In this document: piece after piece, positions 3,051 through 57,683 of the stretch
Layout: every line of letters begins with the position of its first letter
Position numbering within the stretch: position 1 is the stretch's first letter
Virus record (IMG/VR): IMGVR_UViG_3300044971_000875
Span: 1 to 57,683 of that record
Length of the DNA stretch: 57,683 bases
From: a virus
Taxonomy: Duplodnaviria; Caudoviricetes
Reading direction: 5' to 3' (one strand)
Notes under the pieces: model-generated
What the model saw: only the letters and a program-made list of their open reading frames with translations
Told to the model about the DNA's origin: nothing
The model's database searches: none
Program-made: the position numbers and the translations under genes

Positions 3051-3751
3051 TGTCAATTACTGTTTATTGGGCCTGTATTGAAGAAGAATGGCTAAGGGCT
3101 AAAGAGCCTGAGCCAATATATAAACAATTTTTAAAAAATATAAAAGATAAAAATACAGTAGTAAATTTTTGCCCATCAGTAAAAGAATACATGAAAAATG
3201 TTTTTTCAATAGAATCCATATATGATTATAATTTTGAAATAAAAGATAATCAAACAGGTACATTTACTAATTTATACGATCAAGACTTTTTCAATAAACA
3301 TGTAATGGTTCGTTCAGAAAAAGAAAAACTTTTTTCATTTTTTCAACAGTTTATTTTTTTTACTGAGAAAAATTCTTTAAAAATGTCTGCAGGGATGCTG
3401 CCATTTTTAGAAGATAATGAAATAACTAAAAGATGCATACCAATTCCTGGAATTTTTGATATTGGAAAGTGGTTTCGTCCAACTGAGTTTGCTTTTTATT
3501 TAAAAAATAATTACAATAGATTTGAAATTAAAGAAGAAGATATTTTTCAGTATATTAAATTCTATACGGAAGAAAAAATTATTTTTAAACAATTTTATGC
3601 TAGCGAAAAAATTATGAAATATGCAGGAGACGTTACAAAAGCAAAAGATTATAGAGTAAATAAAACTAGACAATTGCAAAGTTATTATTCAATGCTTAAG
3701 CATAAAAAAAATATAATAAAAGAAATTAAAAATAACTTAATAAAAGGATAA
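3050..3751 (+). CDS. Hypothetical protein, distant relative of the DUF6065-like family
   Basis: CPS motif, PGIFDIGKWFRP; AT-rich. Confidence 0.5.
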   Translation: MSITVYWACIEEEWLRAKEPEPIYKQFLKNIKDKNTVVNFCPSVKEYMKNVFSIESIYDYNFEIKDNQTGTFTNLYDQDFFNKHVMVRSEKEKLFSFFQQFIFFTEKNSLKMSAGMLPFLEDNEITKRCIPIPGIFDIGKWFRPTEFAFYLKNNYNRFEIKEEDIFQYIKFYTEEKIIFKQFYASEKIMKYAGDVTKAKDYRVNKTRQLQSYYSMLKHKKNIIKEIKNNLIKG

Positions 3752-3753
3752 AT

Positions 3754-4713
3754 ATGGCTAATATAGTATTTCTTGGTAACTTTGAAGTGCCTTATAGTAG
3801 TGAGAATCATCATGCTAAATCTTTGGAATCTCTTGGGCATACGGTGCAAAAATTGCAAGAGAAGAAAGCGGGTAGTGCTGAAATATTAAATGCAGCACTA
3901 AAGTCTAATTTATTCATCTGGGTGCATACACATAGATGGCAAACTCCAGGATCTAGATCTATGACAGATGTATTAAAACAATTAAAGGCTGCTGGCATAC
4001 CAACCATGACCTATCATTTAGATTTGTGGTTTGGTATTGAGCGTGAAAAAGATTTAAAAAATGATGATTTCTATACAAACATAGGTCACTTTTTTGCTAC
4101 AGATAAGTTAATGTGTGATTGGTTTAATGAAAACACACAGGTAGAAGGACACTTTTTACCTGCTGGTGTGTATGATAAAGAATGTTATATCCATGAAGAT
4201 TATGATCCACATAACTTTGAAAATGATATTATATTTGTTGGTAGTAAGGGTTATCATCATGAACATAAATACCGACCAGAATTAATAGATTTTTTGAGAA
4301 ACACATATGGTAAAAGATTTTTACATGTTGGTGGAGATGGTGACACTGGAACTGTTCGTGGAGATGCATTAAACCGTATCTACGCAAAAAGCAAAATAGC
4401 AATAGGTGATAGTTTAAATATTAATTTTAATTATCCTTACTACACTAGTGATAGATTGTTTGAGAGTACTGGTCGTGGTGGTTTTACTATCTACCCTCGC
4501 ATTAAAGGTCTTGAGGAATACTTCAAGGATGAAAATGAGATTGTATTTTATGAACACGGCAACCTTGAAGATCTAAAAAATAAGATAGATAAGTATTTAT
4601 TAGACGGTATATCAAGAGAAGCAATCAGACTTAATGGGCATGAAAGAACAAAAAAAGAACATACTTACGTTCATAGATGGTCTGTAATACTAGAAACTCT
4701 AAACATAAAATGA
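3754..4713 (+). CDS. Glycosyltransferase, GT-B, CgeB/Glyco_trans_1_2-like
   Basis: DIIFVGS, SDRLFE..G.GGF, HTY.HR motifs. Confidence 0.85.
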   Translation: MANIVFLGNFEVPYSSENHHAKSLESLGHTVQKLQEKKAGSAEILNAALKSNLFIWVHTHRWQTPGSRSMTDVLKQLKAAGIPTMTYHLDLWFGIEREKDLKNDDFYTNIGHFFATDKLMCDWFNENTQVEGHFLPAGVYDKECYIHEDYDPHNFENDIIFVGSKGYHHEHKYRPELIDFLRNTYGKRFLHVGGDGDTGTVRGDALNRIYAKSKIAIGDSLNINFNYPYYTSDRLFESTGRGGFTIYPRIKGLEEYFKDENEIVFYEHGNLEDLKNKIDKYLLDGISREAIRLNGHERTKKEHTYVHRWSVILETLNIK

Positions 4714-11463: not shown

Positions 11464-11745
11464 TTATTCCATAGTTAAAGACTGCCAAGTTTCATACCAG
11501 TCTTTTTTAGTTTTATGCTTATTAAATTCTCTTGAAACTTCTCCACCCTCTAAATAAACACCACCCCAGACTCCCCATTCTTTTCCAGAGACCCCGTTGG
11601 CAAAACATATTTTTTTTACTGGGCATTGTTTGCAAAGTGCATCAATATCTTTTCTAGATTCTTCATAATCTTCGTATTTATCAAAGAATGCATTGTTGTC
11701 CATTCCCAAGCATAAGGCTTGATCTTTCCATAAATGCTGTTTCAA
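11464..11745 (-). CDS. whiB: WhiB-family Fe-S transcription factor
   Basis: W...A.C, C..C.....C, GVWGG. Confidence 0.92.
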   Translation of the reverse strand: MKQHLWKDQALCLGMDNNAFFDKYEDYEESRKDIDALCKQCPVKKICFANGVSGKEWGVWGGVYLEGGEVSREFNKHKTKKDWYETWQSLTME

Positions 11746-16240: not shown

Positions 16241-16259
16241 TCATGAAGATAAAATGAAG

Positions 16260-16333
16260 TAGAGTGGGTAGGACTTGAACCTACGATAACCGAATTATGA
16301 GTTCGGGGCCTTAACCAACTTGGCTACCACTCC
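16260..16333 (-). tRNA. tRNA-CAT (Ile2 or elongator Met)
   Basis: GGAGTGG...CCGAA-CTCATAA-TTCGG...GGTTCAAGTCC...CCACTCTA; lacks initiator features. Confidence 0.88.
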
Positions 16334-16340
16334 CTGATTG

Positions 16341-16413
16341 TGTCCCCAACGGGATTTGAACCCGTGTTAACGCCGTGAAAGGGCGACGTCCTAGGCCACT
16401 AGACGATGGGGAC
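16341..16413 (-). tRNA. tRNA-Glu(TTC)
   Basis: GTCCCCATCGTCTAGTGGCCTAGGAC...CTTTCAC...GGTTCAAATCC. Confidence 0.93.
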
Positions 16414-16418
16414 CTTTG

Positions 16419-16489
16419 AGCGGATAGCGGGAATCGGACCCGCACATTAACCTTGGCAAGGTTACGCACTACCACTATGCAATATCCGC
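16419..16489 (-). tRNA. tRNA-Gly(GCC)
   Basis: GCGGATA...TAACC-TTGCCAA-GGTTA...; T-loop reads TCCGATT. Confidence 0.88.
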
Positions 16490-54500: not shown

Positions 54501-55927
54501 TCAACTGAGTTTGTTGTTAAAGCAAGTACCTTTGATGCCTGTGTTCCATCTTTTGTTACGTTTTGAAATAATGTTGATAAACGTGAAAATTGGAACTTGC
54601 CGAATAACTGTTCAATTGCACGAGCACGATTAAGTGGATCTAATGTATCCAAGGCTCTTGAAAAGTCAATAACTGTTTGTCTAATGTTTCCTTGGTTGCC
54701 TTCTACAATTGCATTAATATTAATACCAAACCCTGCAAGCATGGCGCTTGCTTTTTTTGTTGGATTAATTAATGATGCAAGACCAGATTTGAGTGCGTTG
54801 GCGCCTTCTGATGCATTGATACCGCCCTCTTTCATGGCAGTCAAGAAAAATGCTAAATCTTCAACATCTCCACCAAGTTGTTTAACAACTGGACCTGCTT
54901 TAGGAATTGCAATAGTTAAATCTTCAATAGATACAACTGTTTGGTTTTCAACTGCGTTAAGAAAGTCAATCTTTTTTGCTAAATCTTCTGCTGCTATTCC
55001 AAAAGCATTTGTTACTGATATTGTGGTTTCTAATGCTTGACTCTGTTCTACTCCACCAAGGACTGCAAGTCTTGTAGCCTGTGCAACTTGTGCAGTAAGT
55101 TCTGCTCCAGTTTTACCCATTGCCGCAGCATCTGCTGCCATCTTCATTGTATCTACAACTGCTACACCATACTTTGTAAATGACTCTGCAAGTTGTTTTA
55201 TATTTTCAAGAGCCTCATTTGTTTGTTCCGTTGTTGTAAAGACGTCTCCATAAACACGTTTAAATCTAATAGCCTGTTTTTCAAGATCCATAAATGTTCT
55301 GCCAGCCACAGTTCCTAAATAAACAAGTGGAATTGTAAAACCAACCATAAGTTGGCGACCTGCCCATTGTGTGTTTTTACCAAAGTTTAAAAGATTGGTA
55401 GATCCTTGTTTTAATAATTGATTAAATAGTGCTTGTTTTTGTGCTGCCATAGCAATTTGCGTGCCATAGTCTTTCATGTTTAGGCTAGTTGGAGTAACAG
55501 AGATAGCCTTCATTGCTCCGCTTGCATCACGGCCTAGTTTAATATATTGTGTTTGTAATTTTTTTACACGCTCTTGCGCTACCTTGCCAATTGTGTCAAA
55601 CTCTGTTTTAAATAATCTTCCAAATGTTTTTGTTGAACCGCCCGCAAAACGGAAGTATTCACGCATTGACAGTTTATTTTTTTCAAGAGAATGTGTAAAA
55701 GATTCTGTAGATGTTCTAACAACACCCATTTGTGCTGAAAATTTACCAGTAGCATTTATTGAATTCAGCAGATTCTGCTGCATATTTCTTTGTTGAGCAG
55801 CAGCAGAAGCACTACCCTTTGATACCGAAGTATGGAATAGTGCTAACTGTCGCTGTAAACCTTTAAGTTCCGCTAACGCCTGCGACGTATCAATTTGTAC
55901 GCCAATTTTGGCATTAACATCACTCAT
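48560..55927 (-). CDS. Tape measure protein
   Basis: 2455 aa; TP901-type core (GKNTQWAGRQL, N..ENQT, A.EG.NALKS), two LTPGE motifs. Confidence 0.95.
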   Translation of the reverse strand: MSDVNAKIGVQIDTSQALAELKGLQRQLALFHTSVSKGSASAAAQQRNMQQNLLNSINATGKFSAQMGVVRTSTESFTHSLEKNKLSMREYFRFAGGSTKTFGRLFKTEFDTIGKVAQERVKKLQTQYIKLGRDASGAMKAISVTPTSLNMKDYGTQIAMAAQKQALFNQLLKQGSTNLLNFGKNTQWAGRQLMVGFTIPLVYLGTVAGRTFMDLEKQAIRFKRVYGDVFTTTEQTNEALENIKQLAESFTKYGVAVVDTMKMAADAAAMGKTGAELTAQVAQATRLAVLGGVEQSQALETTISVTNAFGIAAEDLAKKIDFLNAVENQTVVSIEDLTIAIPKAGPVVKQLGGDVEDLAFFLTAMKEGGINASEGANALKSGLASLINPTKKASAMLAGFGININAIVEGNQGNIRQTVIDFSRALDTLDPLNRARAIEQLFGKFQFSRLSTLFQNVTKDGTQASKVLALTTNSVEQLAIMSERELGVLENAVGTKFKKAIEDLKLTLAPIGKTFLEAVTPIAQSIAGLLDKFNNLGDGTKKFIVVATTLVGVIGPVLLMTFGLLLNAVANGIKLFAVMRSGFLRLGGNSKILAEQTNYLSVEQLEAATIAASLNQRHTQLTQQFVMEAGSLKLLRQAYIDATAAAARFAATNPGMMLPGFRGIKGGGTQKFSSGTTGVVGGESGKDSVPALLTPGEAVVPEPIAQDDRFKPLVAALVSGKIAQYNGGTTGVKPGLAFGHAVDYRQVSGANVSDKFRQLGFGRENLYTSVGFDIPKEMNAQLNRTNSRVNIDDYRKALLNNNSLRTMTLSLAKRGIPDREAYKVAQQIRGNLLKSLSGLPSGTLINDKMIYSRMGNERTGIMGALAKSGDPIISKAARSLLGAASTSAVGGSKIATNKLKPIDDVIKAVQKTRSNPVLVKKLNELKKLNPNLQIPTSLNSAGEIVAYRRPEITGGKVTGNNVMNGLVDGKFRSQREFLGGGRQVLKITKSMNDTFDRLISKQPQKETVAVRARGEFKRDSSGKLTALTGQNTERKPASVGTTSRNIADNRTTTLGPKETVVQRIRRIRGFADAQKVDSKGVPLSEATSKLAMGPRGLIAKQQQEIKKQNESIKQSTQATDDLTKQTKTAKQSLTAFSSKATMGLGAISGLTIAASFAGGKLGEMAQTIMPFVFGLQGIAMILPLLANPLVAVVAGFALVGGVIYKMGKDLEKARLEGINLAKSMSMTSEKLTALSVIAGTVSASEEAARRRKNIVSGTVEGQRQFGQNTLESEFGKGILADIEKQSKSGKSIKEISQNLANNLAVAVAQGAVTTSQARSISAALGEKLGSYEIPALVSGKLVSLLGPNGENLATDPLQVTLQIQKDSMQRQADSFRTAVDGAISESTGPNVLARVAGFGLIAAGAAAAVLTAGAAAVPGAALAATGAGLMLGGEADANKRKSVNVKLAAAAVELGIQEVAQNQGLVDSLNKQYDLKLKSAKTEQEIKTIEDQRKAGLATLNASNANALNLLVKQRDQLGGEAFTKGIKAAADAMYKEGPMAVFKDQALDALNNLKDSEFKTELQVGLASGQVGPAVITKILSTAAGNKGFETAFSLLVDKQGLADAALIAELLPSEGATDTTRALMLGYINNNSEDFDKDMQALSFLNQINPTYGITLDLKANGIQQLATATNALKQIEGLDPTLTKDVVAKLAEEKPGEWKAFYDQWTILSEGKDFVNKNLKVAFDVVSNDPNFKGFEGAAGKSAAEIIAKGGILPGAIPGGGVVEDKGPGKRDTVLDDLLLKLKLFRKESVNALGGWKELVKQLGSGKSINAFKGTTNQLQGMGANESLVQFAEGLGAEEAGKFFDKITSKAKNGKLVLNDYGKSLNRLFPTVQAGIYLRQQDQITREQTTQNKALSMLRARGVDAATALELTADAAQAAAIVSKDLDGKDLEKMIDRTKKATAATKEFEKALKATQFEADELSEGGAEALSENFDYQFIEIQKKAKDSFKKINGMSSEAIELSIMIDEQAINKIEDEINGINLKIKSYSRTLDSIGKQESIITETYDKKIESLNKQKDALESIKSINSFLISQQQKQLGLANALTQGDISAAASIAQEMRASSAEEALNRMGGGLEKATSNLELEKQKDLSLVTAVVNGEKLTRKQIDAKIITLNDEIYNIELKQLEPLQKQADAKKKLLSDLDFQISKEQQSLTINGMTRAEWDFIQRYTDATNKHLNQIVIDIDKVATSSTTAAGAWTSILASMKAASSLSGAVPSPTAKTAGPADYDKMQKDLTKEFTDRGIASGPASGLAASSVRLQAQADAYFKANPNIDPFTGAQKKMYGGKILSMAMGGLVPKYMANGGSIGSDTVPAMLTPGEFVMNKKATQQFGPLLSMLNESKYPSMIGNRNSAQVPVNSISTSMNDNSTAVYNYSLGFNINGSNSNPNDIARAVIREIKNVDSQRIRGQRI

Positions 55928-55943
55928 TCTTTCACCTCATTAT

Positions 55944-56276
55944 TTAATTGTTTGCAAGAACTGTGTTCAAGAGTGCATTTGCATCTTGAAGTTTTACCCC
56001 TGAAGCAGATTCAATAATTCTGTAAACAGTTGGAAGATCAATATTTTCTTCTAACTTTTTAGCATCTTCTGCAATTTCTGGCTTATATTGCTTCATAGCA
56101 ATTTGAACACACTCAATAAGGACAGTTGTTGACTTGTCATTATCCTCTGCCACCTCTGCTAGTTCTGAAAACTTTTTCATAAATGGACGAAGTAATGAGA
56201 TTTTAAGCGGTCTTGCTTTAATCTTGCTTCCGTCCAAAAGAACTAGTTCTACCTCTTCATACGTGTTTGTTGCCAT
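55944..56276 (-). CDS. Tail assembly chaperone, G-like short form
   Basis: Directly upstream of TMP; L.DG...PLKI..LR.FM, D.PT.Y.I....G. Confidence 0.8.
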   Translation of the reverse strand: MATNTYEEVELVLLDGSKIKARPLKISLLRPFMKKFSELAEVAEDNDKSTTVLIECVQIAMKQYKPEIAEDAKKLEENIDLPTVYRIIESASGVKLQDANALLNTVLANN

Positions 56277-56283
56277 TGATTTT

Positions 56284-56312
56284 TCCTCCTATAGGCTATG
56301 TCAATTATAGCA
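56284..56312 (-). promoter_or_regulatory. Extended -10 promoter and strong SD for short chaperone/TMP
   Basis: TGCTATAAT...AGGAGG. Confidence 0.75.
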
Positions 56313-56337
56313 TGATGATGATTATTTTTTTATTATT

Positions 56338-57033
56338 TTATTTTGTTAAATCTTCGTAATCTAAACCATGACCAATGCCAAACCCTGCTTTTTGGGCACT
56401 ATGTCCTTGAAGAGCCAAAATGTCTTTGCCATCGCCTGTCTTGCCTTTGCTAAATACTCTGGCCTTCATATCTTCCCACTCTTTTTGTCCCCTATCATTA
56501 CCTGATTGCTTATCTAAATCTACCCCCTGAATTGCAGCAAGAAATTTTTTTTCTTCATAGTCAAGTTCTCTACGACTAGAAAGGGTGGCCATTAATTCTG
56601 GCATAGATAGCGATTCTTCTAATTCTTTGTAATCTTTCCAAATGCCCAATAAAAATACTTCTGCTTCTATTTTTGCTAAATCTAACTCAGACCAAGTAGC
56701 ATTACTGTCTTTTGCTTGATCTTTTACTGTTTCTTGAGATTCTTTGTTTATTTTAATTCCCGCTGCAACATCTAATATTGAATATATAGTTGGCATGTCT
56801 AGGCTATCTTCTATGTCCTCTTTGTTTAGTGCTACATCTGGATAATATTGTTTCATACAAATTCTAATGCACTCTGTTATACATTCTATGGCTTCGTCAT
56901 CATTTTTGGCTTTTTTGACATACTCAAATGCTTCCATAAACTCACGTAAATGTTTTATTTTTAATGGATTTATTTCTAACTCTGTGCCATCAATAAGTTT
57001 TATTACTTTATTTTGATAAACGGTTGTTGCCAT
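56338..57033 (-). CDS. Tail assembly chaperone, GT-like long form (in-frame)
   Basis: N-half homologous to 55944-56276; C-half W..LDLA..E.E.FL.G.WK.Y.ELE..LS.PEL. Confidence 0.8.
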   Translation of the reverse strand: MATTVYQNKVIKLIDGTELEINPLKIKHLREFMEAFEYVKKAKNDDEAIECITECIRICMKQYYPDVALNKEDIEDSLDMPTIYSILDVAAGIKINKESQETVKDQAKDSNATWSELDLAKIEAEVFLLGIWKDYKELEESLSMPELMATLSSRRELDYEEKKFLAAIQGVDLDKQSGNDRGQKEWEDMKARVFSKGKTGDGKDILALQGHSAQKAGFGIGHGLDYEDLTK

Positions 57034-57053
57034 AATTTCTATTCTATCATAGG

Positions 57054-57094
57054 CAAAACAAAAAACCCACCTAATTAAAGGTGGGCTTTTGTTT
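57054..57094 (-). terminator. Rho-independent terminator after major tail gene
   Basis: cccacct-aattaa-aggtggg with T-run on the minus strand. Confidence 0.85.
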
Positions 57095-57108
57095 AATCTA
57101 AGTTTAGA

Positions 57109-57683
57109 TTATGATTGTCCATAGGTACGATCAATGATCTTACCGTAAGAACCTGATGTATCTTCAGGAAGAAGACGGAATGAAACTTCAAACATTGACG
57201 GCTCATCACGCTTTGCTGACACAGTTACGTTCTCAATTGATAGAGCACGATATGCTGCATAGATGCGTTCTTTGTCCGCAAAAGTGGCTGGGTCACCAGA
57301 TCCTGGACCAACAGCAACGATTCCTCGTTCTACTGGAACATCTCCGATATCTCCTGCACTTAAGTTAAGTGTTTGACCTGTTGATGCGTTTTTATTTCCT
57401 GTTATTTTATCATCAGAGTATGCTAGTGCTACAAGCAAGTTTTCTAGGGTTGCTTCAGCAAAAGCGGTAGCAAGATTTACTTGCATACCTTGCTTGTATA
57501 GTCTTGCAACGTCAAGAATTTGATCTACCTGAACTTCACCGAAGTCTGGTTGGAATTGTAATTCTAAACCATTCATGGTGTAACCCACGTTGGTATAAGT
57601 AGCGGCTGATGTAAGTGTTTCCTTGTAAGACTCACTTGAATCAATCACTGCTGATGACGCTAAAGTTGCTGGAGTCAAAGTTG
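57109..57683 (-). CDS. Major tail (tube) protein, 5'-truncated by window
   Basis: VGYT.NGL...QPDFGEV.VDQ.LD, T..AEATLENL, F.V.FRLLP; upstream of chaperones and TMP. Confidence 0.88.
   Translation of the reverse strand, partial: TLTPATLASSAVIDSSESYKETLTSAATYTNVGYTMNGLELQFQPDFGEVQVDQILDVARLYKQGMQVNLATAFAEATLENLLVALAYSDDKITGNKNASTGQTLNLSAGDIGDVPVERGIVAVGPGSGDPATFADKERIYAAYRALSIENVTVSAKRDEPSMFEVSFRLLPEDTSGSYGKIIDRTYGQS

Follow-up and report, generated by a model that had tools for sequence, protein, structure and literature searches.

The programmed frameshift that yields the tail assembly chaperones G and GT is among the most conserved viral recoding events, and slippage is usually said to fix the ratio of the two proteins. 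In phage lambda, the tape measure protein is bound and coated by G and GT, and the longer product uses its T part to bind and recruit the major tail protein. Lambda-type G and GT reportedly arise through a programmed -1 frameshift, as is said of the work of Levin in 1993 and of Xu, Hendrix and Duda in 2004. For the BK1 phages, a -1 frameshift that gives two chaperones from one start codon has been predicted, according to the accessible part of a genome announcement (PMC10793280). In some T4-like phages a short gene and a longer fusion gene take the place of the frameshift, as stated in the accessible passages of PMC10885494, which cites Vladimirov 2022; the same work (Vladimirov, Gautam and Davidson 2022, Virology 566:9) is cited for T4-like chaperones in the accessible passages of PMC12846349 as well. 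Some Microbacterium EA phages are described, in the available portion of PMC7302621, as having two ORFs that are expressed separately with no evident frameshift.

We analysed a viral contig of 57,683 bp (hereafter the window, i.e., the whole stretch of DNA under study), which is estimated to be ~53% complete and has ~34% G+C. At its right end all genes in the ORF list lie on the minus strand, in the order major tail gene, ORF231, ORF110 and the gene of a 2455-aa tape measure protein (Table 1), and ORF231 and ORF110 are therefore found between the major tail and tape measure genes, the position that characterizes G and GT. The window's major tail protein matched phrog_2175 (E 5.8e-29) and shared 46% identity over 160 aa with the one annotated in the Streptomyces phage MulchMansion (E 1e-45), and the first 300 aa of the tape measure protein showed 24-26% identity to the tape measure genes annotated in MulchMansion and Circinus (E 2e-24 and 3e-16, respectively). 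No match was obtained by blastn of positions 55700-57683 against the phage collection. By the rule of ~0.15 nm of tail per tape measure residue, a tape measure protein of this size implies a very long tail of ~370 nm.

Table 1. Features of the tail chaperone locus at the right end of the window, in minus-strand order.
Feature	Position	Strand	Remarks
Major tail protein gene, 3' part	57109..57683	-	cut by the end of the window; 210 aa full length in relative L006
Terminator-like hairpin and T run	57061..57090	-	just behind the major tail gene; 12-pair stem with 5 GC pairs
TGATAGAAT, extended -10-like box of GT	57041..57049	-	7 nt before the ATG
GT gene (ORF231), 231 aa	56338..57033	-	in-frame fusion; ATG at 57033, stop 56340..56338
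G1 domain of GT	56746..57033	-	aa 1-96
Linker of GT			aa 97-112
T domain of GT	56341..56697	-	aa 113-231
TGCTATAAT, extended -10-like box of the G2 gene	56304..56312	-	
AGGAGG Shine-Dalgarno	56285..56290	-	8 nt before the G2 ATG
G2 gene (ORF110), 110 aa, short chaperone	55944..56276	-	ATG at 56276
Tape measure protein gene, 2455 aa	48560..55927	-	preceded by GAGGTG; begins 16 nt downstream of the G2 stop

The sequence-only reading of this DNA had proposed that the two adjacent ORFs have a common N-terminal domain, that the 231-aa ORF runs on in frame into a T-like extension, and that the 110-aa copy stops after the common domain; all three points were borne out. In BLASTP, residues 1-96 of the two proteins were identical at 37 of 96 positions (39%), with 72% positives and an E-value of 7e-26. 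Both ORF231 and ORF110 matched phrog_10504 (E 3.5e-23 and 2.1e-22, respectively), and phrog_10474 was matched by ORF231 only, through residues 131-197 (E 4.8e-15). A search of the window's own record found exactly two copies of the G domain, here termed G1 (in ORF231) and G2 (ORF110). The predicted products consist of a shared N-terminal domain with a T extension on the longer one, T being present only in ORF231, where one reading frame holds both G1 and T.

The relatives of ORF231 in cultured phages and in metagenomes identify the extension as T. Neither of the two outcomes that would have spoken against the sequence-only reading was obtained: the N-terminal domains align significantly, and the extension is homologous to T regions. 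A tblastn search with ORF231 of 50,697 phage records matched 127 records, all of them Streptomyces phages (127/127) of ~130 kb, and in all 40 rows listed of these 127 records the match fell into two pieces, on pairs of small ORFs which are located between the major tail and tape measure genes and annotated as 'tail assembly chaperone' or hypothetical. The corresponding search with ORF110 gave 127 records and 127 places, i.e., a single G per Streptomyces phage. Streptomyces BE/BK phages and metagenomic relatives have one G gene followed by a T ORF in the -1 frame, and it is this T ORF that residues 113-231 of ORF231 match. The window's T was 59% identical to that of L085 (the nearest frameshifting relative), 52% to that of Circinus, and 42% to those of both L171 and MulchMansion. 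Because T in the relatives sits in the -1 frame behind a single G, ORF231 is the in-frame equivalent of their frameshift product. The second ORF of MulchMansion occupies the -1 frame, which is open from position 2788 onwards and overlaps the last part of G (stop 2843-2845); a conserved SWDELNLAQLEAEVF, which matches TWSELDLAKIEAEVF in ORF231, precedes the annotated T start at 2875 and must therefore be reached from G. The records of MulchMansion and Circinus annotate G and T as separate genes, and their T starts cut off conserved residues.

Three lineages of relatives carry a canonical slippery heptamer, either C_CCA_AAA or C_CCA_AAT. In L085, C_CCA_AAA is found three codons ahead of the stop codon of G, and T is immediately followed by the tape measure gene; in the metagenomic group L171-L184, C_CCA_AAT was present in 5/5 loci examined out of 15; and in Circinus (locus L002), C_CCA_AAT at 2806-2812 lies in the motif NDPNLL, and a -1 slip at this site reads on into ...TWEELDLAKLEAEVF. 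MulchMansion (BE type; locus L001, 2785-2845) has a non-canonical C_CCG_GAA at the slip place and no canonical heptamer, so that a clear slip site is not found in every relative. In the window, G1 and T share one frame, and G2 has neither a C_CCA_AAW nor a T ORF behind it; since the defining recoding feature fails, the pair is not a frameshifting G/GT gene. A hidden frameshift in GT, yielding a short G1, was also considered and ruled out, as the junction has no conserved heptamer: within codons 95-120, no canonical slippery heptamer was shared by as many as five of 112 distinct fused GT genes. An A_AAA_AAA does occur farther downstream, at 56548-56554 (minus strand), in codon 162 of GT and thus inside the T domain at the conserved EEKKF, and A_AAA_AAR is found at this motif in 65/112 fused GT genes. 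This run probably arises incidentally from Lys codons in a genome rich in A+T, and a -1 slip on it would truncate T.

We thus regard it as probable that ORF231 and ORF110 are the long and the short tail chaperones, encoded by tandem paralogous genes that replace the programmed -1 frameshift, as the sequence-only reading had suggested: the window has a fused GT and a second G, whereas its relatives have a single G with T in the -1 frame. The distribution of the two-gene form was surveyed in several ways. At E<=1e-3, ORF231 had 6487 relatives of 127-405 aa, the best 120 of which measured 230-233 aa, were 79-95% identical and came from several sources. Of 80 viral contigs fetched (71-84% identity), 77 showed GT (230-237 aa) followed by G2 (107-111 aa), in the window's order of major tail gene, GT, G2 and tape measure gene, and the remaining three end before G2 could appear. 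An HMM scan in all frames recovered the GT-then-G pattern in 161/168 loci, many of these loci being the same contigs fetched twice; the others comprised four loci cut after GT and three with split G and T, namely MulchMansion, Circinus and L085. Counting distinct sequences only, and including the window, 104 GT..G2 loci and 112 fused GT genes (230-237 aa, from many samples) remained. The reversed order, GT before G, which had been noticed in the window, is therefore a property of the close contigs and of all 104 distinct loci. The two-gene form was also found in the more distant L165-L170, in which T is 77% and the major tail protein 80% identical to those of the window. Among the best 150 representatives of 50%-identity clusters, some of which are fragments from short contigs, nine had G and T in one protein, 83 had T only and 58 G only, and the split form thus dominates at deeper divergence. 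A scan of viral contigs with P0140 gave no confirmed relative.

These numbers also bear on a trivial explanation, by which the in-frame fusion would be an assembly or sequencing indel in a frameshifting gene, and ORF110 an unrelated small gene. Homopolymer indels occur in metagenomic assemblies, and in one relative (L056, 3744-4078) G2 is split over two frames, being either a broken copy or the result of an assembly indel. However, the distinct fused genes, 112 of them and narrowly confined in length, come from many samples, the best 120 of the 6487 relatives are of the same size and from several sources, and ORF110 is clearly a paralogue of G (39%, E 7e-26); by the counts of distinct fused genes the artefact is refuted, and we give it a negligible probability.

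The space between GT and G2 is occupied in some of the relatives. A 215-aa ORF (~720 nt) is inserted there in 6 of the first 80 loci (L023 at 3725-4372, L025, L026, L027, L035 and L053); it carries a SAM-methyltransferase-like motif, LELGCGSGNDT, and the G2 gene behind it keeps its own box and Shine-Dalgarno sequence. In L186 (1285-1842), a 185-aa Cys/His-rich, HNH-like ORF follows GT at the place where G2 is expected, and the contig ends before a possible G2. The GT/G2 junction seems to tolerate insertions.

Domain databases and structure prediction were consulted for the function of the two proteins. In a Pfam scan of ORF231 and ORF110, no family reached or came near the cut-off, and phrog_10504 and phrog_10474 are both labelled 'unknown function'. 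The AlphaFold model of G2 (pLDDT 69.7) consists of a beta hairpin plus helices; a Foldseek search of the PDB with this model returned 0 matches at E<=1e-3, and its best match in BFVD carries the name tail assembly chaperone (E 5e-6, TM 0.74/0.78), followed by many annotated chaperones in the non-significant tail of the BFVD list. The name 'tail assembly chaperone' in the Streptomyces phage records is the annotation itself, and a chaperone role of ORF231 and ORF110 is suggested by their position, their annotated homologues and the common G/GT architecture. By analogy with lambda, G and GT would jointly cover the tape measure protein, with T bringing in the major tail protein. A complex prediction of the major tail protein with the T domain gave scores of 0.23 and 0.15 against a mark of 0.32, to which no weight is given in either direction.

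It is quite improbable, in our judgement, that only the fused GT acts as a chaperone and that G2 has another role, e.g., as a tape-measure-specific helper or a regulator. Such a role might be read from the promoter-like box and leader that G2 has of its own, and from the unrelated ORFs that can separate GT and G2 (methyltransferase-like in the L023 type, HNH-like after GT in L186), because with such insertions co-translation of the two genes is not needed. Yet G2 retains the nearly invariant residues of the family (G16, P23, L24, I26, L29, F32, M33, D80 and G93) together with the ancestral tail, and it is better conserved than G1. In the tree it joins the G of L085, which belongs to a G/T gene that still frameshifts, and in the survey of 80 contigs and the HMM scan it was always located directly before the tape measure gene.

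To address the origin of the two copies, a tree of the shared domain was built (54 rows, 101 columns); it is suggestive only, because the bootstrap had not settled (correlation 0.963) and the columns are few. All G1 sequences fell into a single clade (99/99) with a long branch (0.71), apart from a clade uniting G2 with the frameshifting G of L085 (98/89); G1, G2 and the G of L085 shared a larger group (90/71) to which the Streptomyces and L171 types did not belong. The placement of G1 outside G2 and L085 would fit faster evolution after a duplication within the lineage, an older duplication, or acquisition from outside. We consider it unlikely that G1 and T were acquired by recombination from another phage lineage, or that the duplication predates the split from L085 and was followed by later loss, although the position of G1 on its long branch and the low identity between G1 and G2 within one locus (31-45% among 104 distinct loci) speak for such an origin. 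Against both stand the common grouping of G1, G2 and the G of L085 and the identity of T to that of L085 (59%), which is in step with that of the major tail protein (68%) and therefore fits vertical descent of T. Furthermore, G1 is, as judged from the alignments, the faster-evolving copy and G2 the more conserved one: mean pairwise scores among distinct loci were 0.678 for G1, 0.745 for G2 and 0.810 for T, and G1 was more diverged than G2 in 1112/1500 locus pairs, so that its faster evolution could displace G1 in the tree.

A duplication within the lineage, which we prefer, could have proceeded as follows. In an ancestor with slippage at C_CCA_AAW, the G/T unit would have been duplicated in tandem; a frame fusion would then have fixed copy 1 as GT, with a G domain that extends to near the former slip site, a linker, and T, and copy 2 would have lost both the T ORF and the slippery heptamer, leaving G2 as the zero-frame product. 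G2 would have kept the ancestral C-terminal tail, as well as an ancestral-looking promoter, leader and Shine-Dalgarno sequence, and G1 would have evolved faster than G2 after the duplication. In the alignments, the tail of G2, KLQDANALLNTVLANN, corresponds to the zero-frame tails of frameshifting G genes (KMDDPNLLAAAVLAGQN and KLNDPNLLAMAAEALGKN), with the heptamer gone, and G1 leaves the tail alignment right after GIKI, to continue as linker and T. Upstream of G2, the sequence also resembles that before the single G of L085, which consists of TGCTATAAT, a leader and AAGGA.

The two genes differ in their start signals. The long gene had been described as lying behind a terminator, with TAGAAT 7 nt before its ATG, and the short one as having a box and a perfect AGGAGG, the unequal signals being proposed to set the ratio of the products; the signals were recovered at these places (Table 1), and their inequality proved to be kept across the 104 distinct loci. 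Both GT and G2 start with ATG in 104/104 of these. For GT, the longest match to a Shine-Dalgarno sequence was <=3 nt in 104/104 loci, and TGnTAnAAT was present in 101/104, ending 7-9 nt before the ATG (7 nt in 16 loci, 8 nt in 14 and 9 nt in 71). For G2, TGnTAnAAT was present in 104/104 loci, ending 23-29 nt before the ATG, and a contiguous match of at least 6 nt to AAGGAGGT (Shine-Dalgarno) in 95/104. In the relatives these boxes stay fixed while the surrounding sequence varies, and a hairpin with a T run is found at the same place behind the major tail gene, with differing stem sequences. Within the window the box TGNTANAAT is not enriched (27 found vs 23.8 expected by chance), so the weight of the boxes comes from their conservation in the relatives; as matches to a consensus, they are putative promoters.

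Since no Shine-Dalgarno sequence follows TGATAGAAT, we infer that GT has a leaderless or near-leaderless start: were transcription to begin at the customary spacing from the box, 0-3 nt of leader would precede the ATG. The SD-less, near-leaderless start of GT and the SD-led start of G2 may set a low GT:G ratio, and stoichiometry would then depend on separate initiation signals (none of the Shine-Dalgarno type in GT vs a strong one in G2) and not on the frequency of slippage. Leaderless mRNAs can be well translated in Actinobacteria; a leaderless start thus need not mean low expression there, and the G:GT ratio could therefore differ from that of lambda. Eight RNA runs gave only small shares of the sampled words, 0.04-0.07. 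Contigs of four lake or freshwater metatranscriptome libraries, compared with positions 55900-57683, contained relatives that were 85-99% alike on the major tail gene and on G2; at >=85% likeness there were none on GT, where missing cover is uninformative, such contigs being unable to rank genes. The metatranscriptome contigs fit a freshwater habitat, and carry-over of DNA into such libraries is possible.

The host is probably an actinobacterium, as suggested by a WhiB-family gene, by the Streptomyces phage relatives and by a contig binned with Candidatus Nanopelagicales. The WhiB-family gene is located at 11557-11730 (minus strand; PF02467, E 1e-13, above the curated cut-off), and genes of this family mark actinobacteria and the phages that infect them. 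A search of 185,579 species genomes gave one match, a 2-kb contig (L186) binned with a Candidatus Nanopelagicales genome, which is weak evidence. Leaderless starts are frequent in Actinobacteria, and an actinobacterial host would thus make a leaderless start of GT plausible. The window further contains a cluster of three tRNA genes at 16259-16489 (minus strand) for Met (cat), Glu (ttc) and Gly (gcc). The fuller picture, which falls somewhat short of being probable, is that of a very abundant clade of uncultured, freshwater, actinophage-like viruses in which a duplication would have replaced the frameshift and two modes of initiation would fix the G:GT ratio, the L085 type being one that still slips.

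A clade without slippage beside slipping relatives implies that the coupling of the two chaperones through a frameshift is not obligatory in long non-contractile tails. Fused GT plus G2 on one side, and genes with C_CCA_AAW on the other, both accompanied by the same major tail and tape measure families, offer matched material on the benefit of the frameshift, and if the ratio is indeed set by two modes of initiation, the window's clade and the L085 type would be a natural pair for asking why the frameshift is otherwise kept. The conserved contrast between an SD-less and an SD-led start provides a testable hypothesis for control of the ratio. For annotation, where a 231-aa ORF in this group has a 110-aa paralogue behind it, the two are best named the long and the short chaperone, and no frameshift should be forced upon them.

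When compared with known systems, the window shares with lambda the position of the genes, a short and a long product with a common N-terminal domain, and the joining of T at about the same point, but it differs in having no frame change or slip site, in using two genes with their own starts, and in placing the long form first; in the Pfam scan, the window proteins showed no detectable sequence or family relation to lambda G. The Streptomyces BE/BK phages (Stanwilliamsviridae; MulchMansion gp54/55, Circinus gp34/35), L085 and L171-L184 have the same G and T families and the same flanking genes, but one G with T in the -1 frame, whereas the window's clade has a fused GT and a second G. The Microbacterium EA phages resemble the window in being actinobacteriophages with non-contractile tails and apparently without a frameshift, but by the description in the available text (PMC7302621) they have G and T apart and not a fused GT with a duplicated G. 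In the literature searched, in which subscription journals were thinly covered, the arrangement was undescribed in the window's phage group and in other phages with non-contractile tails. The closest parallel in principle is the T4-like pair, in which, according to the accessible passages of PMC10885494, short and long paralogous genes likewise replace recoding and the longer consists of the short part plus an extension. T4 gp26 (208 aa) and gp51 (249 aa) were weak paralogues in our comparison (20% over 161 aa, E 2e-6); T4 has a contractile tail and proteins of a different family, and its two genes are transcribed divergently and have drifted much farther apart in sequence, whereas the window's genes are in tandem, 39% identical, and have nearest relatives that still frameshift. 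The principle has thus already been published for T4-like phages, and the window represents a clean, very abundant and well-bracketed case of it in phages with long non-contractile tails.
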